A DNA stretch of 50,400 nt from an uncultured Mycoplasma sp. (GCA_964499645.1 CAZCLV010000001.1:1-50400), one strand, 5' to 3'. Positions 240-16,134 are shown, counted from the stretch's first letter. Numbers and translations: made by a program. Notes: generated from the letters alone by a model not told the origin.

Positions 240-1043
240 TCAATATTTTTTTATTCTTTCCAACGGACAAGTTAGACATCTTAAATAACCAGTTTCTTTT
301 ACTGTGTCATATATATCCATTACTTCTACTTTAAATTTTTTTTCTTTTAAAGCTCTAATTAAATCATCATGTCTTTTTTGTACTATGACAACATTATCCC
401 CTAAACAAATTACATTCGTTACTAATTCATCTTGTTCGCTTTTATCAACATAAATAATATTTGTAAATAACTCTTCTATTATATTTATTGATTCTTCTTC
501 TAACCCATCTTTATATACAATCACTGTATCTTTTGATATTGGATTAAATATACAATCTAAATGAACAAAAGGAAAATATGGATTAGGATTTTTCATATAT
601 AAAGGAATAATTCTATACTCTGGTGAAAAAGTATCATTCATAAACTTTAAACCATTTTCATTTGTTCTATTTCCTTTTTGACCAACAAAGATAATATCAT
701 TATAAAGTAGAACATCTCCGCCTTCGACAATTGTATCACCATATAAATAAATTCTATTTTTCCCATCTATTTTATCTAATATATCTTTGGCGGATTCTAT
801 TTCCAATTGTCTTATACTTTCTTTCATATGACAAATTAACATTTTATTTCCAATTACAATAAATGGATCTCTAACAAACATTTGATATCTATCATTATTC
901 TGTTTTTGAGTCATAACAATTTCTACATTATATTTCTTTAATATATCTAATAATTGTTTTTGCTGACTTGAGTATTCTTCATCTACTGGCGCTAATAACA
1001 CTTTAGTTAATTTATCATATTCATTTTTTACATTCAAACGCAT
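240..1043 (-). CDS. Guanidino-group-modifying enzyme superfamily protein (DDAH / amidinotransferase / arginine-deiminase fold)
   Basis: Motifs MFVRDPF, VEGGDVL, GNRTN, VHLDCIF and C-terminal GYLRCLTCP (candidate catalytic Cys). Last gene of the operon, 3 nt after the upstream stop. Confidence 0.75.
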   Translation of the reverse strand: MRLNVKNEYDKLTKVLLAPVDEEYSSQQKQLLDILKKYNVEIVMTQKQNNDRYQMFVRDPFIVIGNKMLICHMKESIRQLEIESAKDILDKIDGKNRIYLYGDTIVEGGDVLLYNDIIFVGQKGNRTNENGLKFMNDTFSPEYRIIPLYMKNPNPYFPFVHLDCIFNPISKDTVIVYKDGLEEESINIIEELFTNIIYVDKSEQDELVTNVICLGDNVVIVQKRHDDLIRALKEKKFKVEVMDIYDTVKETGYLRCLTCPLERIKKY

Positions 1044-1046
1044 TAT

Positions 1047-1655
1047 TTATCCTATTAAATCAGTGAAGTCTTCTACATAATAATCTGCAACTTCTTTTAT
1101 TTCTTTTAGTTCATCATTAGTAAAAGGATAATTCTTATTTTTAGCCCATATAGTAGAAATTCCAATATTTTTTGCTGCTTTTAATTCAAATGGCATATCA
1201 CAAATTGCTACTACCGTGGATTTATCAGATACCTTAACTAAATCTAAGGCTTTATTATATAATTCTTCATCTGTAAATTTACATTCGAAAAGTGTTTCAC
1301 TAGCAATTAAATCAAACTTTTCAAAAGGAAATGTTTTATTAACTTCCTCATTTTTTAACATAGTTTTATTCGTTAATTCACATTTATTAACAACTACTTG
1401 AGAAAGGCCATTATCTTTAAAATAATTTAAAGCTTTATCAGCATTAGCTCTATATCCCAATGTTTTATAAGCATTAGCTGCTATTTCTTCAGAAGCCTTA
1501 CCAACTTCCCCTTTACTAACACTTCCATATTTTTCCGCTACTAACTTATCCATGTTATACCACATAACTTCAGTATCAAATAATGTACCATCTAAATCCC
1601 AACAAATAAATTTAATATTTGGTAATGATTTTAATAATTTATTTACCTTTTTCAT
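1047..1655 (-). CDS. HAD-superfamily hydrolase/phosphatase
   Basis: Motif I WDLDGTLFDTE near the N-terminus. GGAGG Shine-Dalgarno upstream of the ATG. Confidence 0.75.
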   Translation of the reverse strand: MKKVNKLLKSLPNIKFICWDLDGTLFDTEVMWYNMDKLVAEKYGSVSKGEVGKASEEIAANAYKTLGYRANADKALNYFKDNGLSQVVVNKCELTNKTMLKNEEVNKTFPFEKFDLIASETLFECKFTDEELYNKALDLVKVSDKSTVVAICDMPFELKAAKNIGISTIWAKNKNYPFTNDELKEIKEVADYYVEDFTDLIG

Positions 1656-1663
1656 ATTTCCTC

Positions 1664-2449
1664 CTAGTTATCAATTATTTCATCTGTCATTTCATTAAAG
1701 CGTAATCCATTAACTAAAATTGATTCCATTCCATCTTCAATAATATGTCCAAACGATAATTCTGGAACTTCTTCAGGATTACAGAAGAATGGTCTTTCAT
1801 AACCTTGAGGACTAAATACTAACTTATAAATTTTGTTATCTCCAAATATAACAATATTTCTTGTATCTTTACTTAATTTAATAGGATTATTACTTTTCTT
1901 TCTAGCATGTCCTACATTTAAAGGTCTTTCTTCATCCCATTGCTTTTCAACATATAAAATACCTTTATATTTTTCTTTAAAGTACTCTAAATTATCTTCT
2001 GCCACTTGAGGATCTTTATTTAATAATCTCATAGAACGATCATGGTATTTACCTCTTGAAACGTAAACATAAACAGCATCAATATACTTGGTTTTCTTAG
2101 CGAATATATCTATCATTTTTTCTACTCTAGTACGATCAACACAGTTAGTAAAGAACCATACTTCATGAACCTTAATTTTATTTTTAACAATATTATCATA
2201 CATTCTTTGAACTAAATCTAATTCTAAAGATGGCTCTCCTCCTAATATTTTTAAAATATTTATTTCTTTAAAAGGTTTCATAGAAGCATCTATCATATCT
2301 ATAGTCATAGAACATTTACCAGGTCCACCTTCACTACAATAACCAACACAATTTAAATTACACTTTTGAGTGATTAGATATTCTAGTTCTTCTATCTTCA
2401 TATTATCCTTATCAAAATATTTTTTAAATGTCTCATATTTCTTATTCAT
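1664..2449 (-). CDS. Radical-SAM-type enzyme with atypical cluster motif CNLNCVGYC (Cx3Cx3C)
   Basis: N-terminal Cys triad-like motif followed by the GGEP SAM-binding motif (ILGGEPSLE). GGAG SD upstream. Confidence 0.6.
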   Translation of the reverse strand: MNKKYETFKKYFDKDNMKIEELEYLITQKCNLNCVGYCSEGGPGKCSMTIDMIDASMKPFKEINILKILGGEPSLELDLVQRMYDNIVKNKIKVHEVWFFTNCVDRTRVEKMIDIFAKKTKYIDAVYVYVSRGKYHDRSMRLLNKDPQVAEDNLEYFKEKYKGILYVEKQWDEERPLNVGHARKKSNNPIKLSKDTRNIVIFGDNKIYKLVFSPQGYERPFFCNPEEVPELSFGHIIEDGMESILVNGLRFNEMTDEIIDN

Positions 2450-2463
2450 ACAAACTCTCCTTC

Positions 2464-3429
2464 TTACTTATATACATTATTTTTTAACTTTCTAACACTT
2501 TTTAACCTTTTATCATTGAATGATAAATAATTATATTCAAAAATAGAAGGTAAATTATTATCAACTAATATCTTGTCTAGCTTTCTGCTTGAACCTTGGA
2601 AACGAGGATTAATCTCAATAAAATATAATTCATTATTTGTATATATATAATCTATTCCTAAAACTCCTCTATAACCAAGTTCTTTTAATTTCAAACATAT
2701 CTTTGTTGTATAATCCAAAAATTTCTTTCTTACATCCTTTTTAATCTTAATATCATAAAAAGAATCTACATATTCAATTTTTTCTCCAATTTCTAAATCT
2801 TGCATTGAAGGTGGAAAAATAATAAAATTACCACTTCCTATAACACAATTAATATTATATGGAATATTATCTTTCATATAGAAAGATATTATATACAACT
2901 CATCTGGTCTTAATTTATTTTTAATATCTTTCCAATTATCTTTATCACATAGAAATGTTTTGGATCCTCCACTACCAAGTGGATGTTGAACAACTAACAT
3001 TTCTCCTTTAGGACTTAATTTATTAAAATCAAAATCTTTATCTTTAATATATTGATATTCCAACATTGAAACCATTCCTTGAAATAATTCTCTCATTTCT
3101 TTTTTATTATTAAATAAACTAATTAAATAATCACTATTCTTACAAATTAATTTAGCATTACTAGGAATATCACATTGAGAAACTATTTTATAATCATGTG
3201 CCATAATTTCAAATGGTTCTTTTATTGTTTTTAATAATTCGTTATATATCTTTATTTCTCTAGGATTACTATCTGGATTCCAATATTCAAATTCTAATAC
3301 ATGATCTAAAGTATTAGTTGTATAAGATATATTCTTTTCACTATTATTACCAAACAAAGTAATAGAATAATCAAAAAAATTAGAATTCTCAATAGTTATC
3401 TCTTTTGGACCTACATAAACACGTTTCAT
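2464..3429 (-). CDS. ATP-grasp family ligase
   Basis: C-terminal GVLGIDYIY...LYFIEINPRFQGSS, typical of the ATP-grasp Mg/ATP site. Confidence 0.7.
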   Translation of the reverse strand: MKRVYVGPKEITIENSNFFDYSITLFGNNSEKNISYTTNTLDHVLEFEYWNPDSNPREIKIYNELLKTIKEPFEIMAHDYKIVSQCDIPSNAKLICKNSDYLISLFNNKKEMRELFQGMVSMLEYQYIKDKDFDFNKLSPKGEMLVVQHPLGSGGSKTFLCDKDNWKDIKNKLRPDELYIISFYMKDNIPYNINCVIGSGNFIIFPPSMQDLEIGEKIEYVDSFYDIKIKKDVRKKFLDYTTKICLKLKELGYRGVLGIDYIYTNNELYFIEINPRFQGSSRKLDKILVDNNLPSIFEYNYLSFNDKRLKSVRKLKNNVYK

Positions 3430-3438
3430 ATATTAACC

Positions 3439-4476
3439 TTATAAAACATTATGTGTGCATGGCTTACACAATGGTCCCATTTTAACTTTATATTTCTTAC
3501 AAATTTTTTCACTTTTCTCTTTAGCTTCAATAAATAAATCAGCTTTTGGTGGGAAATTAGCTTCGCCATACGGGAATAATGGTGATAATACTGGATTGAC
3601 TCCAATCTTAGCTAGTTTTTCTACACCTTTTAATGTTTCTTCTAAAGGTTCAATACCAACAATCAACAAAGAACGAACTCTATCTTTTCCAAATATCTTA
3701 ACTGCTGTTTCTAAAAACTTAAGATAATTTTCTTGACCAATAGCATATTTTTCTGGACAGTATTTTTTTAAATAATCAGGATGATTTAATTCCATATTAA
3801 TAGACAAGCCATATACCCCAACATCTTTTAAATGTTGAATATATCCTTCATATTGTAAACTATCATTATAACTAGTAAATCCCCTTGGAGTCATCATAAT
3901 ATCCATCTCGTAATCGTAATACTTCTTTGTAAAATGATCATACATATCAGTAATTGCTTCTAAATCTCTTTCATATACTGAACCACTTGATATTAATATA
4001 TGTCTCGTATTAGTTTGTTCTAAAGCTACTTCTAAAGCTTCTTCCATACCTTTAATAGAATTTAATTCATATTTATATTCAACAGCATTACAGAATTTAC
4101 AATTATTAGAGCAACCACTCATTAATTGTAAACGAGTACGATCTGTGTATGTATTTACATATACACATATTTTTTTACCATCAATTATCATTTCATCTCT
4201 CATATAATCTGGTGGTGTAATTACTGTAGTTTCTATTTTATCTTTTCCATCGCTAATATATAATTTTCCATCTTCGGTAATTAATTTATAATGTGAAGTT
4301 TTTTCAACACCAATAGTTGCATAAGTATCTTCATATTGTAATGAAATACCACTACAAGTAATATAATCATCCATCAACCAAATATCCGATTGCTTATCAA
4401 GTACTTTCTTAGTTTCCTTTGAAACTTTAATTCCTTCTTCAAGAAGTTTTGCTTTTAAAATAAATCCTTTCTCCAT
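3439..4476 (-). CDS. Radical SAM enzyme (canonical Cx3Cx2C) with an N-terminal extra domain of about 100 aa
   Basis: SGCSNNCKFCNA motif. GGAGG SD upstream. Confidence 0.8.
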   Translation of the reverse strand: MEKGFILKAKLLEEGIKVSKETKKVLDKQSDIWLMDDYITCSGISLQYEDTYATIGVEKTSHYKLITEDGKLYISDGKDKIETTVITPPDYMRDEMIIDGKKICVYVNTYTDRTRLQLMSGCSNNCKFCNAVEYKYELNSIKGMEEALEVALEQTNTRHILISSGSVYERDLEAITDMYDHFTKKYYDYEMDIMMTPRGFTSYNDSLQYEGYIQHLKDVGVYGLSINMELNHPDYLKKYCPEKYAIGQENYLKFLETAVKIFGKDRVRSLLIVGIEPLEETLKGVEKLAKIGVNPVLSPLFPYGEANFPPKADLFIEAKEKSEKICKKYKVKMGPLCKPCTHNVL

Positions 4477-4488
4477 ATACGTCCTCCT

Positions 4489-5661
4489 TTATTTATCTTC
4501 ATTATCTAAAATATCTTTAATTCTTTGTCTAATACTCCTAGAATCTGTCATTTTCATAATATCTTTCCATAATGGATAACAATGTTTACATTTAGGAATA
4601 TCTTCTAAAAATTTAATATCATATGTAGCATTAAATTTCTTTATTCCTTCTATGTATTCTCCTGTACATAAAGAGCAATTAGAAGAAGTTAAATGTGGGA
4701 ATACTTCATTTCTTCCCTCAAATCCTACTCCTTGGCTTCCACTTAAGACTTCCTCATCAAAATATCCTCCGATTCTAATATCTAAATTTTGATTAGGTAA
4801 AGCCTTATAAATACCTTTAACAATTTCTTCTATACTCCATAACCAAGGTACTCTATATTGCCCCATATCATATAAATAATTGGCTAAAGAATAATCTTGT
4901 AAAGAAGTAGGCTCAATAGATACTGCATCAAATCCCATATTGAAGCAATCAATAGAAGTTTGAATAGCATCTAAGACAGCTTCTCTTTCTGTTAAAAAGA
5001 TTGGTTTAAAATTAACATATGCTAATGCTTTATAGCCATACTTATGTAATCTTTTAATAGATTTTTTTATTGTTTCTAAATGTTCTAATCCTTTATGATG
5101 ACATAACTCTCTAATTGTTTTATTAGTAGATTCAACACCTATTCCTACTTCAACCAATCCTGAATATACATCTTTAATATTTTTTATTGCATCATCTGTA
5201 ACATATTCTGCTCTAGATTCTACAATAACTTTCTTAACTCCATCATATTGATTAAGAGTATTAAAAATATAATGTATTACTGGTTTTGATACTTCATTTT
5301 CATTAAACAGACTACCTAAGTTATATAAACATAAAACAGAATAATCATTTAAATTAAATTTAAAGTTTTCTTTTTCAATAGCTGTACCATCTAATACGCT
5401 ATCCCATTGGGCTTTATAATTCTTATCAGTTACTTTATGTATTGGAGTTCCATTGAAATGAGAACACATAGAACAACCTCCTGTTTTTTTATAATGTTCA
5501 CATCCATTAGCTCTTAATACAACCATAATACGATCAATTATTTTACCTTCATAGAAAAACTTATTAATCTCAATTTCTGCTAATTTATTATTATTAAATT
5601 TCTTTAAAATCGTATCATCTCTTAAAGATTTGATTTTCTTTTCTACGATATCTTTAACCAC
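4489..5661 (-). CDS. Radical-SAM-like enzyme of the Elp3/YhcC/TIGR01210-like type, with Cx8Cx2C and C-terminal CxxC...CxxC
   Basis: ANGCEHYKKTGGCSMCSH motif, C-terminal NCSLCTGEY...KCKHCYP. GTG start overlaps the upstream stop by 1 nt. Confidence 0.55.
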   Translation of the reverse strand: MVKDIVEKKIKSLRDDTILKKFNNNKLAEIEINKFFYEGKIIDRIMVVLRANGCEHYKKTGGCSMCSHFNGTPIHKVTDKNYKAQWDSVLDGTAIEKENFKFNLNDYSVLCLYNLGSLFNENEVSKPVIHYIFNTLNQYDGVKKVIVESRAEYVTDDAIKNIKDVYSGLVEVGIGVESTNKTIRELCHHKGLEHLETIKKSIKRLHKYGYKALAYVNFKPIFLTEREAVLDAIQTSIDCFNMGFDAVSIEPTSLQDYSLANYLYDMGQYRVPWLWSIEEIVKGIYKALPNQNLDIRIGGYFDEEVLSGSQGVGFEGRNEVFPHLTSSNCSLCTGEYIEGIKKFNATYDIKFLEDIPKCKHCYPLWKDIMKMTDSRSIRQRIKDILDNEDK

Positions 5662-7031
5662 TACTTCACATCCTTACATAAATTAATTACTGGTCTATAT
5701 TTAGTTCCTTTTAACATAGGGAATTCTTCAACCATTTCTATTTTTAATTCCATAGATTCCGGTATTAATAAATATATACTTTTTCTAATAACATCTAAAT
5801 CTAACTTGAAATCGCCAGGAATAAGATATAATACTAACTCTCCTTTTTTATATTGAACAAATTGATATCTTAATCCATGTACTGGAATATTAAATTCCAA
5901 ATACCAATTATAGGCAATATCCATAAATGAAGATGCTGGAACATATTTATTTTTACCTATCAAAATACTATCCATAAAACGTCCTTGTATTTTTCTCATT
6001 GTCCTACAATTATTATGACATCCACAAGAAATTGGTTTATCTAATATTACTAAATCTCCTTGATTATATTTAATAATTGGAGTTGAAGTATTTAATAGAT
6101 TAGTTCCTATTAATATTCCTTCTTCTCCGCATCTAACTTTTTTAAAGGTTTTTGGATTAACAGCTTCTACATAACAAGCATCCTCTTCCAAATGATATGT
6201 ATGATAAGGGCACTCTAAAGCTATTCTTGTTAATTCCTCACTACTATATTCATCAACTATTTTTACATTCAATTCTTTTTCTAATTCTTTTCTAAAAGAT
6301 CTACTGGATTGTTCTGAATGAACAATAACAGTTTCGACTCCATACTTACTTAAATCAATTCTTTTTTCACTTATTCTTTCAAGATAAGTAGGATATGTTG
6401 AAATTATTCTTGGTTTTATTTCTTTTATCTTAGAAATAGCTTCTTCAATCTTAGTTGTTGTAGGTAAAAATTCTGTTTTATATAATCCATCTACTTCTGT
6501 AATCCACCAAGGACACGTATATATAAATAAAACAGTATCTTTAGGATCATAATGATTTTCTGATTGCATATAATATTGTCTAAATCCTTGAATAGTATCT
6601 TCATATATAGCTTCTTTAGATACAGCTATTGTTACAAATTTACCACTTGATCCAGAACTACGCGTTGAAAGGTTAAAATCTTCAACATTTTTTGCTATAT
6701 CATTAGGAAAACCTTTAATCAATTCTTCTTTAGTCAAAATTGGTAATTTATCATAATCTTCCCAAGTCTTTATATCACCTTTTTTAAAACCAATAGCATC
6801 ATATTTTTTTCTATATAAAGGAATGTTTTCGTAAGCGTAATCAACAATAAACGATATTCTCTTTAATTGCCATTTTCTTATTTCTTCATAACTTTGATAT
6901 GGAAAATCACGAATACTTTCCCACTTTTTCTTCAGCATTTCTTTAATTCTATTTTCATGGATATTACTTTTAAAAATTTCTTTTGAATTTTTCTTTAAAT
7001 TAATATAATCATCATTTGTAAAATCATTCAT
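5661..7031 (-). CDS. Adenylate-forming ligase, phenylacetate-CoA ligase (PaaK) / coenzyme F390 synthetase / CapK-like
   Basis: STRSSGSSGKFVTI AMP-binding loop and KYNQGDLV motif. AGAGG SD upstream. Confidence 0.7.
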   Translation of the reverse strand: MNDFTNDDYINLKKNSKEIFKSNIHENRIKEMLKKKWESIRDFPYQSYEEIRKWQLKRISFIVDYAYENIPLYRKKYDAIGFKKGDIKTWEDYDKLPILTKEELIKGFPNDIAKNVEDFNLSTRSSGSSGKFVTIAVSKEAIYEDTIQGFRQYYMQSENHYDPKDTVLFIYTCPWWITEVDGLYKTEFLPTTTKIEEAISKIKEIKPRIISTYPTYLERISEKRIDLSKYGVETVIVHSEQSSRSFRKELEKELNVKIVDEYSSEELTRIALECPYHTYHLEEDACYVEAVNPKTFKKVRCGEEGILIGTNLLNTSTPIIKYNQGDLVILDKPISCGCHNNCRTMRKIQGRFMDSILIGKNKYVPASSFMDIAYNWYLEFNIPVHGLRYQFVQYKKGELVLYLIPGDFKLDLDVIRKSIYLLIPESMELKIEMVEEFPMLKGTKYRPVINLCKDVK

Positions 7032-7054
7032 AATTATTACCTCTTTCTAAATTA

Positions 7055-7112
7055 AAAAGTGATGTTAAAAACTATAATTAAATTACCCATCTAATTACAT
7101 TACATCACTTTT
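7055..7112 (-). promoter_or_regulatory. Intercistronic 11-bp stem with 36-nt loop followed by U5, in the only sizeable gap of the operon. Possible partial terminator or RNA stability element.
   Basis: AAAAGTGATGT 7055-7065 pairs with ACATCACTTTT 7102-7112. Starts 2 nt after the GNAT stop. Confidence 0.5.
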
Positions 7113-7113
7113 A

Positions 7114-7620
7114 TTACAATAACATTTCAAAACCATATTCATTCAATGAAAAATCATCATGAATTATTTCTTTATAAATTCCGGAAACCTTTTTAAAGCC
7201 ACAATTAGAATATAAATTAATAGCGGGAGTATTAATTTCACTAACTAATAGTCGCAAATACTTTGCATCTTTGCTTTTAGCAATTTTACAAGCCTCATTA
7301 ATTAGTTTTTTACCAATCCCCTGGTGCAAATATTTAACATTAACACCTAATCTATTTATTACATAAGCTTTGGCAGCATCATTTTCCCATTCTAAACCAT
7401 CAAAAGAATTAACAAATTCGTATAGAGAAAAAACACCTAGTATCTCTTTATCATTTTTTAATAAATAAAGATTTTGTTGTTCGATATCAGACTCAAAAAC
7501 CTCATTTGGATAATATTCATTCCAAATTTTAATATCATTTTCATACATATTTTTAATTATTCTTGTATACATTTCTTTTATTTGATTTAAATCTTCTAAT
7601 CTGGCTAAAACAACTTCCAT
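7114..7620 (-). CDS. GNAT family N-acetyltransferase
   Basis: HQGIGKKLINEA motif-A-like segment. The track ORF starts at GTG 7629, but ATG 7620 sits 5 nt after AAGAGGTG and is the more plausible start. Confidence 0.75.
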   Translation of the reverse strand: MEVVLARLEDLNQIKEMYTRIIKNMYENDIKIWNEYYPNEVFESDIEQQNLYLLKNDKEILGVFSLYEFVNSFDGLEWENDAAKAYVINRLGVNVKYLHQGIGKKLINEACKIAKSKDAKYLRLLVSEINTPAINLYSNCGFKKVSGIYKEIIHDDFSLNEYGFEMLL

Positions 7621-7625
7621 ACTTA

Positions 7626-8768
7626 TCACCTCTTCATCGACAATTTTTTATCTTCTTTTTTTATATATGTTAAATAGTTACTTAACAAATCTTTTAACTC
7701 AACTTCATAGTGCAACAAATTATCTATAGTAATTGTTTCTTTAGAACTATGAATTCCATCAGGAATCCCCGGACCATATATTACTATATTTGCATTTGAA
7801 AATAATTCTTGAAAATAACCTGCTTCAGTAGCATATTTCGCATCTAGCGTTGACTTTCCACCAATATCTGCTTGCTTATTTAAAAACTCACTTTCTCTTT
7901 TTTCAAATGGAGGTATTGATAGCACATTAAACAATTTTGATTCACCATAGCAATTACTTATTTCATTATGCTTTCTAATTAAATATCCGGAAATTGCATC
8001 AAGAATCATTTTATTAGATGTTCTAATTCCAAAACAAAGAGAACTCATATCAGGAACTACATTTGATGGAGATTTACCACCATCTATATGTGTAATACAA
8101 ATAGCAGCATCATTTGATGTTTGTTTCTTAACTTTCATTATTTCTGAACTAAATAGTGTTTGAAGTTCTATTGCATTTATTCCTAACTCTGGGGTTCCAG
8201 AATGACAGGAAATGCCATTCATAATGCTTACATAAATAGAATTTCCCTTACTTGATACATAATAATCTAAATTTGTTGGTTCCCCAACAATAACCATGCT
8301 AGAATTTATATTTCTATTTTTAAGTTCACTAATTATTTGTTGAATTCCTATTAAATAATGTTCTTCATCACTAGTTAAAGAAATTATTACTGGTATATCT
8401 AAACTTTTTAAATAATCTAAATTGGCTATTATTGTAGCTACAAAAGATTTCATATCTGAAATACCTAATCCTTTAAGATTATTTCCATTAATTATAACAT
8501 TACAATTATGACCTTCACTTTCTCTAACTGTATCTATATGTCCAGATAATATTATAGAATCTTCAATATCCCTTAACTTGTGATTAACACCAATTAACAA
8601 ATGAATATTACCATTTTTATCCTCAATTTCTATTTTATCACAACAGTCATCAAAAGTAGTCCGTAAATATTCTATTATCTGATGCTTTTTTCCAATTTGA
8701 CCATATGAAGGAATACTTACGAGATCTTTTAAAATTGTAAGAACGTTATTTTCTTTTCTTGCTTCCAT
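7626..8768 (-). CDS. M20 family metallo-peptidase/deacylase (ArgE/DapE-like)
   Basis: SGHIDTV, ISDMKS and TSDEEH metal-ligand motifs. Start overlaps the ABC-F 3' end by 23 nt. Confidence 0.8.
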   Translation of the reverse strand: MEARKENNVLTILKDLVSIPSYGQIGKKHQIIEYLRTTFDDCCDKIEIEDKNGNIHLLIGVNHKLRDIEDSIILSGHIDTVRESEGHNCNVIINGNNLKGLGISDMKSFVATIIANLDYLKSLDIPVIISLTSDEEHYLIGIQQIISELKNRNINSSMVIVGEPTNLDYYVSSKGNSIYVSIMNGISCHSGTPELGINAIELQTLFSSEIMKVKKQTSNDAAICITHIDGGKSPSNVVPDMSSLCFGIRTSNKMILDAISGYLIRKHNEISNCYGESKLFNVLSIPPFEKRESEFLNKQADIGGKSTLDAKYATEAGYFQELFSNANIVIYGPGIPDGIHSSKETITIDNLLHYEVELKDLLSNYLTYIKKEDKKLSMKR

Positions 8769-10410
8769 ATTCTAGTGCCTTTTCTTCAGTTATTAATGAT
8801 GCTCTGTATTCATCATAATTACCCCAATATTGGTTAACTTTGCCATCTCCAAATACTAAAATTCTATTAGCAAATTTATTTATAAAAAATCTATCATGAC
8901 TAATAAATATTAACGTGCCAGAAAATTCTTCTAACGCTTCTTCCAATACCTCCTTAGTAGGAATATCTATATGGTTAGTTGGTTCATCAAAAATCAAAGT
9001 ATTTATTTCTTGTTGTAATAATTCAGCCATCTTAATTTTCATTTTTTCGCCACCAGATAAGTTTTTAACCCTTTTATTCACATCTTCAACATCAAATCTA
9101 AATCTAGCTAAAATACTACGACATCTCTGTTCGGGCAATCCAACTGCTCTTGTAAAATATTCTAATAAAGTTTGATTGCCATTTTCAAATTCAATTATTT
9201 GTGGTATATATCCTATTTTAACACTTGGGCCAACAAATACTTCTCCACTAACAGGTAGTTCTTGTTTACCCATAATTGTTTTAACAAAAGTTGATTTACC
9301 TGTTCCATTTTCGCCTAAAAGTGCTACTCTTTCACCTGCGCAAACTTCTAGATTTATACTATCAAGAATTTTCTTTCCATCTGGTATTTTCACAGATAAA
9401 TCATTAGCAATTATTATTTTTTTGCTTGATTTATTTTCTTCTAAGAAAGACATATTTAATTTTTTTTGTACAGTCGGTTTTTTAATAGATTTTTCTCTCA
9501 TTCTTTGTGTTCTTTCCCACAACGTTTTGCCTTGTTTAGTTAATGCAGAACTATTTCGACCCATACCTAAACTCATAAATTGTTTAGCCTTAGCCTCTAA
9601 TTGCTTTATTGCTTCTTGTTCATCACCATATTGTGTCATTTGTTTTTCAAACTCTATTTCACGTTGCGTTAAGTATCCTGAATAATTAGTGGCATATATT
9701 TTTCCAATTCCATAATCATCGATTGCCAATATTTGATTAGCCATTTTATCTAAAAAATATCTATCATGCGATACTATAATTGATGCACCTTTAAATGATT
9801 TTATATAATCTTCTAACCATTCAATTCTTTTCAAATCAAGATGATTAGTAGGTTCATCAAGTAATAATAAATCTGGTTCTATCAATAAAGATTTAGCAAG
9901 TTGAACCAATGTTTGTTCTCCTCCAGATAAAGTACTATATGATTGTTCTAACATACTTTTATTTAATTCCAATCCATTGATAACTGTGTTGATTTTTACA
10001 TCAACATCATATCCTCCCATTAAATTAAATTTTTCTAGTAAAGCACAATATTTTTCTAAAATTTTTTCACTATATTCTTCGCTTACTTTTCGCTCATATT
10101 CTTTTAATTGTTTTTCAATTATATTTATTTCGCCAAAAGCATCCTTTAGTATTTCGTAAACAGTCCTATCATCCTCTATGCTTGAACTTAATTGATCTAA
10201 GTATGCAACTTTGGTACCTTTTTTTAAGTTTACTGTACCCCTGTCTGGCGTTTCAAGCCCAGCTATAATCTTTAAAATGGTTGATTTTCCACAGCCATTA
10301 GGTCCAACTATTGCAACTGACTCACCCTCATTAAGAGTAAATGATACATCTTCAAACAATTGCTCGTATCCAAAATTCTTTGCTAATTTATTAGCATCCA
10401 GTATTAACAC
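8746..10410 (-). CDS. ABC-F family ATPase (two ABC cassettes, no transmembrane domain), a translation-associated/ARE-like class
   Basis: GPNGCGKST...LSGGEQ...LLLLDEPTNHLD, then GENGTGKST...LSGGEK...LIFDEPTNHID, with a charged linker of about 80 aa. GTG 10410 lies 8 nt after GGAGG and is preferred over the track start at 10497. Confidence 0.85.
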   Translation of the reverse strand: MLILDANKLAKNFGYEQLFEDVSFTLNEGESVAIVGPNGCGKSTILKIIAGLETPDRGTVNLKKGTKVAYLDQLSSSIEDDRTVYEILKDAFGEINIIEKQLKEYERKVSEEYSEKILEKYCALLEKFNLMGGYDVDVKINTVINGLELNKSMLEQSYSTLSGGEQTLVQLAKSLLIEPDLLLLDEPTNHLDLKRIEWLEDYIKSFKGASIIVSHDRYFLDKMANQILAIDDYGIGKIYATNYSGYLTQREIEFEKQMTQYGDEQEAIKQLEAKAKQFMSLGMGRNSSALTKQGKTLWERTQRMREKSIKKPTVQKKLNMSFLEENKSSKKIIIANDLSVKIPDGKKILDSINLEVCAGERVALLGENGTGKSTFVKTIMGKQELPVSGEVFVGPSVKIGYIPQIIEFENGNQTLLEYFTRAVGLPEQRCRSILARFRFDVEDVNKRVKNLSGGEKMKIKMAELLQQEINTLIFDEPTNHIDIPTKEVLEEALEEFSGTLIFISHDRFFINKFANRILVFGDGKVNQYWGNYDEYRASLITEEKALEYGSKKRK

Positions 10411-10437
10411 AAAACATCCCTCCTTATTTTTAACAAT

Positions 10438-10545
10438 ATTTACATTTATAACGTGAGCAACAATTATTACTTCTTTATAAAAATTATGCAAAAACACGGA
10501 TTGTAAGTAATAATAAATCAGTTCATATTGATTATAAATGTAAAT
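10438..10545 (-). promoter_or_regulatory. Structured 5' leader of the ABC-F gene: nested 14-bp and 10-bp perfect inverted repeats
   Basis: Plus ATTTACATTTATAA 10438-10451 vs TTATAAATGTAAAT 10532-10545. Inner pair ATTATTACTT 10463-10472 vs AAGTAATAAT 10505-10514. Confidence 0.55.
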
Positions 10546-10577
10546 TATAATATGGCAATCACCTAAAATTTCTCTTT

Positions 10578-10606
10578 ATTATATAGGTTTATTCAAAAAA
10601 AGTCAA
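10578..10606 (-). promoter_or_regulatory. Consensus sigma-A-type promoter of the ten-gene operon
   Basis: Minus strand TTGACT (10606-10601), 17-nt spacer, TATAAT (10583-10578). Confidence 0.75.
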
Positions 10607-10630
10607 CATATACTTCTGGTAAATTATTTT

Positions 10631-10694
10631 ATGACACTATGACACATTAATCGAGAGACCACTACTAGCAAAGATAGTGTCAAGTGTCATTTTT
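10631..10694. repeat. Inverted repeat built from four TGACAC half-sites with a 31-nt spacer and flanking T run. Either a bidirectional hairpin/insulator or a protein-binding site.
   Basis: ATGACACTATGACAC 10631-10645 vs GTGTCAAGTGTCAT 10677-10690, then TTTT. Confidence 0.5.
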
Positions 10695-10843
10695 AATTCC
10701 TTTTTGGCAATTTACTATAGTCATATTTATCCATAATTGGATTAAGTAAATCCTGGGATTTATTCAATTGTTCTACAGCTTGTTGCAATGTATATTCACT
10801 TTTACCTTCTTTAAGTAATTTTAAATGTTCTGTTAATAAATTA

Positions 10844-11017
10844 AAACAAAAAGATTGGACTAAAGATGGTCGTAAATGGATTTTTCAAACTAGATATACT
10901 GATTTATATGGTAATGTTAAAAAATATAAGTCAAAAAAATTTCTAAATAAAAATGAAGCTCAAGAGGCAGAAAGATTATTCTTTTTAGAACTAGATAAAT
11001 ATAGACCTGATAATAAT
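10844..11017 (+). pseudogene. Start-less in-frame 5' extension of the integrase ORF, encoding an arm-type N-terminal-domain-like segment
   Basis: The frame is open from the stop at 10718-10720 to ATG 11018 with no ATG/GTG/TTG. It translates to KQKDWTKDGRKWIFQTRYTDLYGNVKKYKSKKFLNKNEAQEAERLF, typical of phage-integrase N-termini. Confidence 0.5.
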
Positions 11018-11986
11018 ATGACTTTTAAAGAATTATATCTTGCTTTTTATGAATATCAAAAAGATAAAGTTAAAGAAACAACTATTCATACTTATTTAGA
11101 TAGAATGAGATATATGCAATATTTAGATAATATTAAAGTTAAAGAATTTAATCTACAACATTATGAAATGTGGAGAAAAAAGATATTAGAATGTAAATTA
11201 TCTAATAGAACTAGAAACTATATTTATAAGTTTTTAAAAACTATTATAAATTTTGGAACTAAATGGTATGGACTTAATTTTAATAATATATATCCTAAAA
11301 TGACTAATTTCACAGATCCAAACGAAAGAAAAAAGGAAATGGAATTTTGGACTTATGATGAATTTAGTAAATTTATATCAGTTGAAGATAATTTAACATT
11401 TAAAACTTTCTTTAAAACATTATATTATTGTGGACTTCGAAAAGGTGAAGCAAGAGCATTAGATTGGAAAGATATAGATTTTATTAATAATACTCTAATA
11501 GTTAGAAAAGGTTTATCTGATAATGTTAATGGAATTAAATATATAATATCTAGCCCAAAGACTTTAAATAGTAATAGAACACTACCTTTATCAAAAGAGT
11601 TAGTAAATGATTTAAAAAAGTTAAAACAAAGTGTAATGGAATATACTAATTTTAAAGAAGAATGGTTTGTATTTGGTAATGACTTACCTCTTGGTGATGA
11701 TGTTATCAGAAGAAGAAAAAATAATAATTGTGTTTTAGCAGGGGTTAAACAAATTAGAATACATGATTTTAGGCATAGTTGTGCTAGTTTACTAATTAAC
11801 AATGGTGCTGACATAACACTTGTTGCTAAATATCTAGGACACACAAAAATTGATGAAACTCTAAACACATATTCACATATGTTTAAAAATAAATTAAATA
11901 ATATTATTGGTCTTATTGATAATTTGAATGAACAATCTAATAAAGAATATGAAAATAAAAAAGATGACTTTGAAATAAGTATATAA
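11018..11986 (+). CDS. Tyrosine site-specific recombinase/integrase (core-binding plus catalytic domains; N-terminal arm domain apparently cut off)
   Basis: GLRKGEARAL (Arg), IHDFRHSCAS (HxxR), LGHTKIDETLNTYSH (His/Tyr). Confidence 0.85.
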   Translation: MTFKELYLAFYEYQKDKVKETTIHTYLDRMRYMQYLDNIKVKEFNLQHYEMWRKKILECKLSNRTRNYIYKFLKTIINFGTKWYGLNFNNIYPKMTNFTDPNERKKEMEFWTYDEFSKFISVEDNLTFKTFFKTLYYCGLRKGEARALDWKDIDFINNTLIVRKGLSDNVNGIKYIISSPKTLNSNRTLPLSKELVNDLKKLKQSVMEYTNFKEEWFVFGNDLPLGDDVIRRRKNNNCVLAGVKQIRIHDFRHSCASLLINNGADITLVAKYLGHTKIDETLNTYSHMFKNKLNNIIGLIDNLNEQSNKEYENKKDDFEISI

Positions 11987-11993
11987 GTAAAAA

Positions 11994-12023
11994 CTGATAA
12001 GCAGATTAGTGCTTATCAGTTTT
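11994..12023. terminator. Bidirectional terminator hairpin between the convergent integrase and C26-peptidase genes
   Basis: CTGATAAGC 11994-12002 / GCTTATCAG 12011-12019, flanked by A and T runs. The right arm overlaps the last codons of the minus-strand gene. Confidence 0.6.
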
Positions 12024-12731
12024 ATTATGCTTTGCTATATAGTCAATAAATCCTTTAAAAATATCATTTTGATTTTTTTTATTTTGAATTAATTCAGGGT
12101 GCCATTGAACTCCTATATTAAAACCATTTTCATTATATTCTAACAATTCAATAATGTTATCATCAGAGTATCCTTTAATTAAATATTTCCCAGGATCGCT
12201 AATTTTACATTTATGTATGCTATTTACAACAAAATCTTCCATAGCAATTAAATCATATAATTTAGAATCTTTTTCAATTTTAACAGCATGCATTTCCATA
12301 TTTTCTAAACTAAAATGTTTTTTCTTTAAATAATCATAATTTTCAAAATCAATTTTCCCACCAGTTGCTAATGCCATATTTATACATCCACAACAAATCC
12401 CAAGAATTGGCTTATTATTTTTAATGCAATATCGTACTATTTCTTGCTCATAATTACATATAACTATTCCACCCTCTAGTATGATTCCATCACATATATC
12501 AAGGGTTGAATATAGATCATTAATAGATTTGTCATCCATTATATAATTATGATAAGAAAAAGGTTTTTTTTCTTCAAATTCTAAAGATTGACTTTGCGGA
12601 ATTATTCCAATAGAAATAGCATTATTTTTATTAACTGCGTCCTTTATTTCGTTGCTTATGCATATTTTATTCCATATAATATCATCACATTGTGGTTTTC
12701 CAACTATTCCTATAATAGGTTTTTTATTCAA
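12006..12731 (-). CDS. Class-I glutamine amidotransferase-like / peptidase C26 (gamma-glutamyl hydrolase, PuuD-like)
   Basis: GICCGCINMA nucleophile-elbow region and VQWHPE His-Glu motif. Confidence 0.7.
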   Translation of the reverse strand: MNKKPIIGIVGKPQCDDIIWNKICISNEIKDAVNKNNAISIGIIPQSQSLEFEEKKPFSYHNYIMDDKSINDLYSTLDICDGIILEGGIVICNYEQEIVRYCIKNNKPILGICCGCINMALATGGKIDFENYDYLKKKHFSLENMEMHAVKIEKDSKLYDLIAMEDFVVNSIHKCKISDPGKYLIKGYSDDNIIELLEYNENGFNIGVQWHPELIQNKKNQNDIFKGFIDYIAKHNKTDKH

Positions 12732-12735
12732 TTCT

Positions 12736-13332
12736 TTAATCCTCTTTTCTTTTTAATTTTAAAACTAAATCTGCCGATTTATGTTCATTTCTACGCTTAT
12801 CCACTTCTTCAATGCTTAGCGGAATAAATCCATCATATATTGAAGAAGCAATTTCTTGCTTTTCTTGTCGGTTATTTTGGATTGAATAACAAGCAACCCA
12901 GTTATCCTTTTTTTCAATTTCATGATAATTGTTACCAATTAATTCATAGCTATTTTTATCAAATAAATGAACAACAGCATTATTATCCAATCTAGTTTGA
13001 ACATAAATGCTATCAACATTAGATGAAATTAAAAGTTTTGTAAGTTCTTTTATTGATTCAGAAGCATATCCCATTCCTTTAAATTCCTCAAAAACATATA
13101 ATCCATTTATTTTTGCAATTTTATCACTACATAAATGAACCATCATATAACCTATTACTTGCTGTTCATCTTCAATTTTAAAGATTATTTTTTCTCCACT
13201 CTCAAATTGAGACATATTTTTTTGCATCCACGTTGAGTAAAAAGGATACTCTTCAATAAATATTGCCGTTAATGCTTCAATACCTTCATTTAATTCTATT
13301 TTTGTTTTTAATCTGTGTAAAATCATATACAT
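12736..13332 (-). CDS. GNAT family acetyltransferase
   Basis: VIGYMMVH...FEEFKGMGYASESIKEL acetyl-CoA-binding-like motif. Confidence 0.65.
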   Translation of the reverse strand: MYMILHRLKTKIELNEGIEALTAIFIEEYPFYSTWMQKNMSQFESGEKIIFKIEDEQQVIGYMMVHLCSDKIAKINGLYVFEEFKGMGYASESIKELTKLLISSNVDSIYVQTRLDNNAVVHLFDKNSYELIGNNYHEIEKKDNWVACYSIQNNRQEKQEIASSIYDGFIPLSIEEVDKRRNEHKSADLVLKLKRKED

Positions 13333-13376
13333 TCCCCCTTAATTGAAAAATATATTATAGCAAATTAACAGATTTG

Positions 13377-13805
13377 TCAATTTAATTTCCTTGGTTTTAT
13401 AATAATTCTAGCACTTTCATCATAATTCCAAATATTTAAATGTCCTTTTGCTAATATTGGTTCTATCGGTTCAATATCTTCAAATACCCATGCATATCTA
13501 CCAGCCTCATAAGAACCACAATAATACTCTATTTTATTTTTTTTCATTTCATTTACGTATTTTTCATCCATATAAATGCAATCCACTAATTTTCCCCTAC
13601 AAATAATATTGCCATAATTCATTTTCATATTAATAATTAATTCATTAACCACATCATTTGTTAAATACTCTTTTGCTAATGTTTTCCCACTAGCATGAAT
13701 ATATAATTCACCACGATAGTTAGTATTCCAACTTCTAGTTTCTATATGTTTAATATTTTTCATTAGCAAAGTGGCAAATGGTTCTTTTATACTAATAACT
13801 TTCAT
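13377..13805 (-). CDS. ASCH (PUA-like) domain protein
   Basis: N-terminal ISIKEPFATLLMKNIKHIETRSW pattern typical of ASCH domains. Confidence 0.55.
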   Translation of the reverse strand: MKVISIKEPFATLLMKNIKHIETRSWNTNYRGELYIHASGKTLAKEYLTNDVVNELIINMKMNYGNIICRGKLVDCIYMDEKYVNEMKKNKIEYYCGSYEAGRYAWVFEDIEPIEPILAKGHLNIWNYDESARIIIKPRKLN

Positions 13806-13884
13806 GTTATTTTATCATTCCTTTCATTATCAATTTTATCATATTATTTGATTGTAAGTGCACTTTAAATATTATTTTTTCAAA

Positions 13885-13905
13885 AAATGCCACCCAAATG
13901 CCACC
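13885..13905. repeat. Direct repeat AAATGCCACC x2 at 11-bp phasing, upstream of the ASCH operon. Possible operator.
   Basis: 13885-13894 and 13896-13905 are identical, flanked by GCACTTT direct repeats. Confidence 0.35.
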
Positions 13906-13959
13906 TAAAGCACTTTTTATAAAAAACAAAAACTCGCAAACCATCATAAATACTAAGAC

Positions 13960-14066
13960 AAAAAAAGTGTCCAGCATTTCTGCTGGACTTCAGGGGGTTT
14001 TGGTTGAATACCACTTTTCACTCTTTAACCGTAAAAAGTAGTGCGGGTCTTTATTTTACCTCGCAG
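13960..14066 (-). ncRNA. Candidate small RNA (about 105 nt) with its own promoter, a 5' hairpin, an unpaired C-rich motif (ACCCCCUGAA) and an intrinsic terminator. Family not recognised.
   Basis: Consensus-like promoter at 14071-14099. GCGAGGU/ACCCGC 5' hairpin. Terminator GTCCAGCA-GAAA-TGCTGGAC + U7 (plus 13960-13988). No start codon or ORF inside. Confidence 0.5.
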
Positions 14067-14070
14067 TTTA

Positions 14071-14099
14071 ATAATAAATTATTTTTTAATAAAAGTCAA
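14071..14099 (-). promoter_or_regulatory. Sigma-A-type promoter for the candidate sRNA
   Basis: Minus strand TTGACT (14099-14094), 17-nt spacer, TATTAT (14076-14071). Confidence 0.6.
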
Positions 14100-14112
14100 C
14101 TGATTTTTAATT

Positions 14113-16134
14113 TTATCCTTCTTTTATATCATTAATAATTATTTCTTTTAATTTATTATAATCTTTATTATCATTCATTAAAAATTCTAATGAATCTTTT
14201 TTTGTTTGTAATAATATTTTATAATCTCTTTTTACATCTGCTATCTTAAAAGTCATATCTCCACTTTGTTTAGTTCCAAATAAATCTCCATGTCCTCTTA
14301 ATTTAAAATCTTCTTCACATATTTCAAACCCATCATTAGTTTTAGTCATTACTTCTAATCTTTTAGCATCTATATCACTAATTAAAACACACTTAGATTC
14401 TAAATTACTTCTTCCTACTCTACCTCTTAATTGATGTAATGTAGATAATCCAAATCTATTAGCATCAAATATTACTATCATAGTAGTATTAGGTACATCT
14501 ACTCCTACTTCTATTACAGTAGTACTTATTAATATATTAATTTTATTATCTTTAAAATCATTCATAATTTTATCTTTTTCTGCTTGTCTTAATTTACCAT
14601 GAATGATATTTATATTAAATTTATCATTAAATGCTAATACCATCTTATCCTTTAATTCATTTACAGTAGTTAAATCAGAATTTTCACTTTCTTCAATAAG
14701 TGGTGCTATTACATAGATTTGTCTATTATTCATTAGTTCTTCATACATCATATGTAATACTTCTTTTGTTTCATTAGTGCCTTTTAAATATGTCTTTATT
14801 GGTATTCTTCCTTTAGGTAACATACTTATAGTAGAAATATCCATATCTCCATATATAGTTAATGCATAAGTTCTAGGTATTGGAGTAGCACTCATATATA
14901 ATACATCTGGTTTTGTTCCTTTGTTTTGTAAATTAGTTCTTTGTAATACACCAAATCTATGTTGTTCATCTGTTATTACTAATCCTAAGTTATTGTATTT
15001 TACATCATCTTGTATTAAAGCATGAGTACCTATAATAATATCTATATTACCTTCTTCTAAATCTTTATGTATTCTATCTTTATCTTTTTTAGATAATGAT
15101 CCTGTTAATAATTCTACTTTTATATTTATTCCCTTTAATACTTCTTTAACTGTATTTAAATGTTGTGTTGCTAATATTTCAGTTGGAGCCATTAAAGCAC
15201 TTTGATAACCACTTAAATAATTTGCATACATAGCAATAATTGCTACTACTGTTTTACCACTACCTACATCTCCTTGTAATAATCTATTCATTCTTCTTGG
15301 AGATTCCAAATCCTCTAATATTTCATTTAATACCTTTACTTGATCATTTGTTAGTTCATATGGCAATTTATTTATTAATTGTTTTATATCTTCTTTATTA
15401 AAATCTCTTTTTATACCATTCTTAATATTTTTATTTCTTAATTTTAAATAATTAATTTTAGTCATAAATAGAAATAGTTCTTCATAAATTAAACGCATTT
15501 GAGCTTGTTTTAATTTTTCTTTTGTACTTGGATTATGAACAATATTTAAAGATGTTTTTTTATTTAAAAAATTATATTGTTCAATTAAATACTTAGGAAT
15601 AAAATCTTCTATATCATTTCCATATTCCATTAAAGCATTATTTATATACAAACCAATATTCTTTGTAGATAAACCCATAGTACCATGATATATAGGTTCT
15701 ATCTTCTCGCTTTTAGGTAATAATCCTATTCTTATTTCTGAAGCCATAATAACATTCTTTAACTTATCATATTTACCTATTACAGTTATATTAGAACCTA
15801 CTGATAATTGATTCTTTAAATAAGCTCTATTGAATATAGAAACACCTACTACTAATCCATCACTAGTAATTAATCTTAAATTCATCTTATTAAGGTTACC
15901 TTTTAATCTTAATAAGATTGGTACTTGATCTACTTTACCATCTATAATAACCTTTTCAAGTTCATCTGCATCTTTTAAATTACTTCTTTTTATTAAATCA
16001 TATCTATATGGATAATGTGATACTAAATCTAAAACACTATAAATATTAATTTTATTAAATAATAAAGCGGTCTTTGTACCAACACCTTTTACTTTACTTA
16101 TATCTATCATTAGACCACTTCCTTTTTCTTTCAT
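14113..16134 (-). CDS. recG: ATP-dependent DNA helicase RecG
   Basis: GDVGSGKT, DEQHRFG, wedge-domain N-terminus, length of about 670 aa. Confidence 0.95.
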   Translation of the reverse strand: MKEKGSGLMIDISKVKGVGTKTALLFNKINIYSVLDLVSHYPYRYDLIKRSNLKDADELEKVIIDGKVDQVPILLRLKGNLNKMNLRLITSDGLVVGVSIFNRAYLKNQLSVGSNITVIGKYDKLKNVIMASEIRIGLLPKSEKIEPIYHGTMGLSTKNIGLYINNALMEYGNDIEDFIPKYLIEQYNFLNKKTSLNIVHNPSTKEKLKQAQMRLIYEELFLFMTKINYLKLRNKNIKNGIKRDFNKEDIKQLINKLPYELTNDQVKVLNEILEDLESPRRMNRLLQGDVGSGKTVVAIIAMYANYLSGYQSALMAPTEILATQHLNTVKEVLKGINIKVELLTGSLSKKDKDRIHKDLEEGNIDIIIGTHALIQDDVKYNNLGLVITDEQHRFGVLQRTNLQNKGTKPDVLYMSATPIPRTYALTIYGDMDISTISMLPKGRIPIKTYLKGTNETKEVLHMMYEELMNNRQIYVIAPLIEESENSDLTTVNELKDKMVLAFNDKFNINIIHGKLRQAEKDKIMNDFKDNKINILISTTVIEVGVDVPNTTMIVIFDANRFGLSTLHQLRGRVGRSNLESKCVLISDIDAKRLEVMTKTNDGFEICEEDFKLRGHGDLFGTKQSGDMTFKIADVKRDYKILLQTKKDSLEFLMNDNKDYNKLKEIIINDIKEG

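Follow-up and report, generated by a model that had tools for sequence, protein, structure and literature searches.

We describe a ten-gene operon on the minus strand of a contig from an uncultured Mycoplasma sp. (GCA_964499645.1, CAZCLV010000001.1; positions 240–10497) that encodes three proteins of the radical S-adenosylmethionine (SAM) superfamily. We assign a probability of about 0.5 to the reading that it directs the biosynthesis of a secreted, basic, amide-linked metabolite that hits the large ribosomal subunit, with self-protection of the producer. All the chemical steps of this reading, the target and even the existence of the product are deduced from homology, gene linkage and gene fusion. 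Two of the three radical SAM-type enzymes are members of uncharacterised families with unusual iron-sulfur motifs. The window, which is the whole stretch of DNA analysed (50,400 nucleotides), corresponds to the first 50.4 kb of contig 1 of an assembly of 0.84 Mb with 25% GC and a completeness of ~88%. The host belongs to the Bacilli, and the nearest records bearing the operon are from uncultured gut Bacilli, including a metagenome-assembled genome (MAG) of Candidatus Coprovivens.

The order of the genes is ABC-F ATPase, M20 deacylase, GNAT acetyltransferase, PaaK-like ligase, RaSEA-like radical SAM enzyme, NF045502-family radical SAM enzyme, ATP-grasp ligase, small radical SAM-derived protein, HAD-family hydrolase and an enzyme with a guanidino-group-modifying fold. 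Neighbouring genes overlap or are separated by 3–14 nt, apart from a single gap of 82 nt. An earlier note on this DNA placed three radical SAM genes and an ATP-grasp gene in one small operon; these four do share an operon, but as part of a set of ten, with the ATP-grasp gene located between the second and third radical SAM genes. The cysteine motifs that the note reported for the three proteins are all present at their positions and conserved in homologues, which rules out a chance occurrence. The view that the three enzymes are distinct is also right, since profile-profile comparison detects no similarity among them. All three derive from the radical SAM superfamily, although activity is only likely for the smallest. 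None of them falls into a subfamily of known substrate. Plain sequence searches against the PDB gave no match for any of the three proteins, and profiles alone matched, weakly. The informative associations within the operon are that of the PaaK-like ligase with the RaSEA-like enzyme and that of the ATP-grasp ligase with the two other radical SAM proteins.

The RaSEA-like enzyme (4489–5661, minus strand, as are all ten genes; 390 residues) contains the motif GC54-EHYKKTGG-C63-SM-C66 (Cx8Cx2C) and two C-terminal pairs, C329xxC332 and C358xxC361. All seven cysteines are invariant in an alignment of 26 sequences that includes archaeal members at 29–55% identity, and both the long first spacing and the C-terminal four-cysteine site are common to a 29%-identical homologue from Thermoplasmata (L059). 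The C-terminal CxxC...CxxC pair noticed earlier is thus a real, family-wide feature. The Cx8Cx2C motif, previously singled out as non-canonical, is equally real but ordinary for its family. TIGR01210, the only NCBIfam family matched, scores 196.9 bits (193.5 bits in the genome search) and does not reach the curated RaSEA cut-off of 212.15 bits. The AlphaFold model, built on the 26-sequence alignment, is confident, with a predicted local distance difference test (pLDDT) score of 88.7 and a predicted template modelling score of 0.90. A Foldseek search with this model places queuine lyase (PDB 6p78) and Elp3 at the top, and most of the 50 matches listed are radical SAM proteins. Queuine lyase aligns with an E-value of 4e-7, a template modelling (TM) score of 0.66 normalised on the target and 0.42 on the query, and 17% identity; it is also the only match of the family profile in the PDB (E-value 0.005 over ~100 residues). 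Together, the confident model, its radical SAM structural matches and the profile match to queuine lyase lead us to conclude that this protein has a true radical SAM fold, as predicted by the model. Its assignment to the Elp3/RaSEA (TIGR01210) branch, already proposed in the earlier note, is borne out by the TIGR01210 score and the Foldseek matches.

Within this branch, the protein would belong to a bacterial sister group of RaSEA. RaSEA itself was rejected as an identity, given the score under the cut-off, the bacterial host and a PaaK-like neighbour in place of ArcS. Queuine lyase was rejected for want of a close full-length match in sequence or fold. Matches on plasmids (Clostridium acetobutylicum pSOL1-type, Bacillus thuringiensis and Streptomyces) were set aside as well, being 26–33% identical and located in unrelated contexts. 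A 27%-identical radical SAM protein of the TIGR01210 branch is encoded at L066:8839-9996 on a large conjugative plasmid of B. thuringiensis HD1002, within a fatty-acid/polyketide-like cluster with an AsnB-like amidotransferase, carrier proteins and ABC transporters, which is a further secondary-metabolite context for the branch.

The gene upstream of the RaSEA-like gene encodes the PaaK-like adenylate-forming ligase (5661–7031; TIGR02155, 126 bits, far under the cut-off), which matches PaaK (PDB 2y4o) with an E-value of 1e-20. In the window, the stop codon of the ligase gene and the start codon of the RaSEA-like gene overlap by 1 nt. We surveyed 48 loci with a RaSEA-like homologue of at least 45% identity, several of which come from the same or close species and are not independent. 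In 46 of the 48, the RaSEA-like gene is immediately preceded by the ligase gene, often with overlapping stop and start codons. The hosts of this core pair comprise gut Bacilli, many Clostridia, Shapirobacteria of the candidate phyla radiation (CPR), and MAGs of Woesearchaeota, Aenigmatarchaeota and Methanosarcinales. The core pair is 48–55% identical to that of the window in six archaeal loci (L045, L046, L048, L049, L052 and L054) and in Shapirobacteria L050.

Two alternative gene sets accompany the core, and no locus has both. Module A, found in 17 loci, consists of the NF045502 and ATP-grasp genes, with or without the M20 and GNAT genes. A three-gene extension (small radical SAM protein, HAD hydrolase and guanidino-modifying enzyme) is present in the window and in five other module-A loci. 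Module B, found in 27 loci, consists of a ThrC-like enzyme, a GntC-like pyridoxal phosphate-dependent enzyme, a LysA-like decarboxylase and an agmatinase-like enzyme; it is the set present in the six archaeal loci named above and in L050, which have no cluster-type ABC-F gene. Clostridium butyricum (L062 and L063; ~6000-15800) is a cultured species with a module-A cluster, which adds a MATE exporter, a GNAT enzyme, an ABC-F protein and a further ATP-grasp enzyme of the amino-acid-ligase type. Some cluster variants likewise hold additional ATP-grasp genes of the L-amino-acid-ligase type. The C. butyricum cluster adjoins a cyclic-oligonucleotide-based antiphage signalling system (CBASS) defence operon and a ParA gene, and may sit on a mobile element. 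The idea of a defence island, which this neighbour prompted, was dropped, as PADLOC gave no defence family and only generic ATPase matches. The extended module-A operon with its three radical SAM enzymes is described here for the first time, as a radical SAM-rich orphan biosynthetic cluster. Literature searches turned up no account of a bacterial representative of these three radical SAM families, nor, for TIGR01210 and MSMEG_0568, a characterised bacterial homologue.

The second radical SAM enzyme (3439–4476; 345 residues) has the canonical Cx3Cx2C motif (SGC122-SNN-C126-KF-C129) and a C-terminal C337xxC340. These five cysteines show no variation among 17 homologues with identities as low as 32%. 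The protein passes the NF045502 model over its full length (130 bits versus a cut-off of 125) as well as PF04055 (34.9 bits versus 29.5), and it resembles the MSMEG_0568 family weakly. Its profile matches ThiH in the PDB (E-value 6e-6) and, also weakly, BioB, QueE, HydG and KamA. By these scores, it is a member of the radical SAM superfamily and of the NF045502 family. The ATP-grasp ligase (2464–3429; PF02655, 48 bits) is encoded beside it. An ATP-grasp_3 gene is paired with the NF045502 gene in all 17 module-A loci, and the same pairing is found in L064, a 35%-identical outlier lacking the ligase/RaSEA-like core.

Gene fusions extend these associations. An exhaustive search of a representative library returned many ATP-grasp relatives of 740–800 residues; the search profile included one fused ATP-grasp-radical SAM row, and the ATP-grasp half dominated the top 150 matches. 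Both of the proteins of that size that were checked for a radical SAM part (P0254 and P0260) are fusions of ATP-grasp and NF045502 domains (hhalign probability 99.9). A TIGR01210-like domain, an ATP-grasp domain and an NF045502 domain are joined in one chain in P0339 (1124 residues). P0382 (959 residues) carries an added N-terminal nitroreductase domain, and P0276 combines nitroreductase and ATP-grasp domains with no Pfam radical SAM match. The fusions P0254, P0260 and P0339 tie the first two radical SAM enzymes and the ATP-grasp ligase to one process. In addition, the ATP-grasp ligase and the small radical SAM protein form a single open reading frame (ORF) at L009:12225-13985 and L021:12069-13835 (586–588 residues), with the small radical SAM part at the C-terminus. 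From these sequence data, the ATP-grasp ligase emerges as a hub that joins the two downstream radical SAM enzymes, and the fusion evidence for this is new.

The small protein (1664–2449; 261 residues) has the motif C30-NLN-C34-VGY-C38 (Cx3Cx3C), followed by G70-G-E-P73. The cysteine triad (CNLNC[VIK][GN]YC) is present in every full-length family member, down to 56% identity; the GGEP motif and C223 are invariant, and an aromatic residue ahead of the third cysteine is kept across the family. The family is small. When 5.8 billion proteins were searched with a word index, 11 clusters emerged, with precomputed PF04055 matches for several homologues, and only three representatives match the small radical SAM half strongly in the exhaustive search. 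A check of 399 further genomes of the class did not find the protein. It occurs only in operons of the window type, always with the HAD and guanidino-modifying genes. All 14 NCBIfam families that it matches at an E-value of at most 0.01 are radical SAM families, with archaeal MoaA as the best (E-value 3.5e-8, residues 15–102). The top profile match in the PDB is 8wm2 ('Fe-S radical SAM'), whose GGEP aligns with that of the small protein. Thus, there is good evidence from sequence that the protein descends from radical SAM enzymes.

The nearest relative outside the family is a 271-residue protein (L070:1132-1947; genome G402, from the same family as the window's host) that is 27% identical over 147 residues (E-value 3e-15). 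This protein reads KCNLNC-AHC where the window has KCNLNCVGYC. As this canonical relative aligns with a single gap, the Cx3Cx3C motif is to be read as a fixed one-residue insertion into the canonical CNLNCxxC, with retention of the aromatic residue before the last cysteine; the rare lineage and this reading of the alignment are both new. The L070 gene is stand-alone, and adjoins a toxin-antitoxin-like gene pair and GNAT genes.

We consider it probable that the small protein is a working radical SAM enzyme; given the poor structural model, its activity is likely and no more. A rival view, which we regard as somewhat unlikely, is that it is a degenerate, radical SAM-derived iron-sulfur protein or serves the ATP-grasp ligase as a structural partner, leaving two working radical SAM enzymes instead of three. 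The scores of PF04055 (25.3 bits versus 29.5) and Fer4_12 (21.7 bits versus 22) are both under the cut-off, and homology is limited to the N-terminal ~160 residues of a very short protein. The model, built from 14 sequences, has a pLDDT of 61, the cluster loop and the last 90 residues both falling below 50, and a Foldseek search with it gave no significant match. Conversely, the triad, the aromatic residue and the GGEP motif stay conserved down to 56% identity, a (βα)4 core is confidently predicted for residues 60–170 (the only confident part of the model), and the nearest outside relative is canonical and of the same size. AprD4 binds its cluster through a Cx3Cx3C motif, according to a review (PMC13707489). 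With this precedent, the spacing is compatible with activity, and the motif is real, as claimed, but not without parallel. This rival concerns one gene and could be true under each reading of the operon.

The first gene of the operon encodes the ABC-F ATPase (8746–10497). It meets the cut-off of the ribosomal-protection-like model NF000355 (444 versus 380 bits) and is a putative protection factor. Of the 42 bacterial loci, 38 have an ABC-F gene next to the core; of the 6 archaeal loci, none has. The only other ABC-F protein of the genome (G000:C2:28-1620), 31% identical, is presumably the housekeeping copy. The second gene (7626–8768) encodes an ArgE/DapE-like M20 deacylase (PF01546 and M20_dimer) that scores 120–137 bits with acetylornithine deacetylase models, under their cut-offs. 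It is followed, with a 4-nt overlap at its end, by the GNAT N-acetyltransferase gene (7114–7629; PF00583, 52 bits). At the other end of the operon are the genes for the HAD-family hydrolase or phosphatase (1047–1655; PF13419, 42 bits) and for the enzyme with the guanidino-group-modifying fold shared by DDAH, arginine deiminase and amidinotransferase (240–1043; PF02274, 58.7 bits), which matches ADI, SxtG, DDAH, HsvA and AGAT in the PDB. Across the loci compared, both genes are confined to the extended operon type with the small radical SAM gene. The ArgE-like M20 and guanidino-modifying enzymes of the window, and the agmatinase-like and GntC-like enzymes of module B, point to basic amino acids.

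The distribution of the operon is sporadic. The ten genes are found in the same order in L007, L008, L009, L020 and L021, at 49–90% identity and with different flanks. A search of 60 relatives, 7 of them congeneric and another 29 from the same family, did not recover the operon, and within the set made up of these and the present genome, the latter is the sole carrier of the RaSEA-like gene. Recurrence in five loci with differing flanks, combined with absence from the 60 relatives, fits horizontal transfer, and the operon is most likely mobile, as judged from these comparisons. A tyrosine-integrase gene on the plus strand (11018–11986) lies directly upstream of the promoter region of the operon, a position that fits an operon within an island.

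If the operon is biosynthetic, the precursors would be of the arginine, ornithine or lysine type, and the product would be a small, basic, amide-linked compound that acts on the ribosome. The PaaK-like ligase would adenylate a carboxylate and couple it to an amine. The RaSEA-like enzyme, whose translation is coupled to that of the ligase, is a probable complex partner of the latter and could perform a radical C–N cleavage or rearrangement of the ligase adduct, comparable to the reactions of RaSEA/ArcS and queuine lyase. Given the ArcS-RaSEA precedent, the most economical model, we infer, is one in which the partner makes an N-substituted adduct and the radical SAM enzyme cuts a C–N bond. The NF045502 enzyme would radically alter an amino-acid-like substrate, to be ligated by the ATP-grasp enzyme, in a logic resembling that of PylB/PylC. 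The small Cx3Cx3C protein may be a lineage-specific tailoring enzyme that acts beside the ATP-grasp ligase and was acquired with the HAD hydrolase and the guanidino-modifying enzyme. For self-protection, the ABC-F protein would guard the ribosome, and the GNAT and M20 enzymes would acetylate and deacetylate the compound. The earlier note anticipated unusual C–C, C–N or methylation chemistry. C–N cleavage is the sole one of these with a family precedent, whereas methylation finds no support, as neither Pfam nor NCBIfam places any of the three proteins in an RlmN/Cfr, cobalamin-binding or HemN family.

A broader generalisation, which by analogy is conceivable but doubtful, is that the ligase/RaSEA-like pair is a general 'carrier amine' machine, driven by ATP and SAM, at the core of a widespread class of ribosome-targeting compounds. 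The ligase would join the amine of an amino acid to a carboxylate, and the radical enzyme would cut the carrier off to yield a primary amide or an amidine. This would amount to the ArcS-RaSEA trick shifted from tRNA to small molecules, with gut anaerobes, CPR and DPANN organisms as makers and the three-radical-enzyme operon of the window as the most elaborate member.

Several observations weigh against a biosynthetic role. No gene of the operon belongs to a family of known substrate, and the operon holds no transporter. ABC-F proteins can also serve housekeeping functions. The small protein contributes scores under the Pfam cut-offs, a low-confidence model and an empty fold search. An identity of 48–55% between the core pairs of bacteria and archaea is unusually high for a tailoring enzyme of secondary metabolism, and the nearest characterised relatives of the core radical SAM enzyme (RaSEA, queuine lyase and Elp3) all act on tRNA nucleosides or their bases and not on secondary metabolites. 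In one alternative, the operon makes no free metabolite but modifies a component of the translation machinery (a nucleoside of tRNA or rRNA, or a protein of the ribosome or an elongation factor), with the ABC-F protein as a ribosomal partner. The only characterised relatives of the core enzyme, RaSEA (PMC11298593), queuine lyase and Elp3, have tRNA or 7-deazaguanine bases as substrates, the ABC-F gene is tightly linked to the core, and the core pair is highly conserved and present in CPR and DPANN organisms with small genomes. However, a translation function is difficult to reconcile with a sporadic, mobile distribution (1 of 61 genomes, this one counted, all of them relatives) or with archaeal loci that lack the ABC-F gene. 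Furthermore, Pfam shows no RNA-binding domain (PUA, THUMP or TRAM) in the ten proteins, the clusters hold GNAT, M20, MATE exporter and extra amino-acid ligase genes, and modules A and B, both made up of small-molecule enzymes, stand in for each other. We therefore regard this alternative as unlikely.

The same enzymes could serve a catabolic, salvage or detoxification pathway that is induced by, and acts on, an external nitrogen-rich compound or antibiotic, with the ABC-F protein providing protection and the GNAT, M20 and guanidino hydrolase enzymes inactivating the compound. Queuine lyase, of the same structural branch, is a salvage enzyme; GNAT, M20 and DDAH-fold proteins are typical modifying or hydrolytic enzymes, and the ABC-F gene is the first of the operon. 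By contrast, with three ligases or ligase-like enzymes that consume ATP, and three radical SAM proteins, the operon follows an anabolic logic. It has no uptake transporter, the C. butyricum version has a MATE exporter, and the extra ATP-grasp genes of the L-amino-acid-ligase type in some variants are equally hard to fit to degradation, which renders such a pathway rather improbable. Maturation of a ribosomally synthesised and post-translationally modified peptide (RiPP), with the small radical SAM protein as maturase and the ATP-grasp enzyme as macrocyclase, would account for the maturases PapB, CXXX-repeat and HxsC among the weak best matches of the small protein. ATP-grasp enzymes do occur in RiPP pathways. 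This similarity is, however, confined to the generic N-terminal radical SAM core, the small protein has no cysteine-rich SPASM or twitch domain, with C223 as the only conserved cysteine of its C-terminal half, and no free small ORF is present in or beside the operon, with its gaps of 3–14 nt. As there is no ORF for a precursor, we reject RiPP maturation as very improbable. Biosynthesis of a ribosome-directed metabolite is thus the reading we prefer.

If this biosynthetic reading is true, uncultured gut Bacilli with small genomes and the culturable C. butyricum carry an unrecognised family of clusters for ribosome-directed compounds, which standard cluster-finding rules would probably miss. It would also provide a first functional context for the bacterial sister group of RaSEA, for NF045502, which is often fused to ATP-grasp, and for a rare Cx3Cx3C radical SAM lineage. 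As C. butyricum can be cultured, its cluster allows the question to be tested directly.

The ABC-F protein resembles the producer-type and resistance-type ABC-F proteins of antibiotic clusters (OleB, CarA, Vga, Lsa and others) in that it passes the ribosomal-protection-like model and its gene is inside the cluster, but it is under the cut-off of every named resistance subfamily. The NF045502 ('variant_rSAM') and MSMEG_0568-type proteins share the C-terminal motif GPxCxPCxHN with ORF 3439–4476. NF045502 is a functionally unannotated family; the window member is canonical (Cx3Cx2C), in contrast to fused members such as P0254, which have a longer first spacing (CTFKENDIPCKFC). The longer spacing of the fused members probably explains the NCBI name of the family. 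PylB and PylC are alike in logic, as a radical SAM enzyme that alters an amino acid is next to an ATP-grasp enzyme that ligates the product, and their ATP-grasp member is in the same Pfam family (PF02655). However, the window proteins have no PylB or PylC match in NCBIfam at an E-value of at most 0.01, and there is no PylD, PylS or tRNA of that pathway. The sole protein that scores with the PylC model (29.6 bits) is a different ATP-grasp enzyme, in C. butyricum. AprD4, the radical SAM diol dehydratase of apramycin biosynthesis (PDB 6fd2), is reported to use Cx3Cx3C to ligate a [4Fe-4S] cluster, as the small protein would need to, but has ~450 residues with an extra domain and no detectable sequence similarity to it.

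Two further parallels concern the RaSEA-like enzyme. Queuine lyase, the best structural match to its model, is also a radical C–N lyase, but is ~160 residues shorter and is a stand-alone salvage enzyme with no ligase partner. In the archaeosine pathway, ArcS needs to be complexed with RaSEA for activity, and RaSEA then turns the adduct of lysine and preQ0 into archaeosine, an amidine (PMC11298593). RaSEA and the RaSEA-like enzyme belong to the same branch (335 residues aligned) and share a Cx7-8Cx2C motif and the C-terminal CxxC...CxxC site. In both systems, the gene beside the radical SAM gene codes for a partner that transfers a group. The reaction that serves as precedent is a radical cut of the C–N bond in the adduct made by the partner. 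The differences are that the partner in the window is a PaaK-like adenylating ligase in a bacterium without archaeosine, and that the window gene pair stands among small-molecule enzymes and an ABC-F gene.

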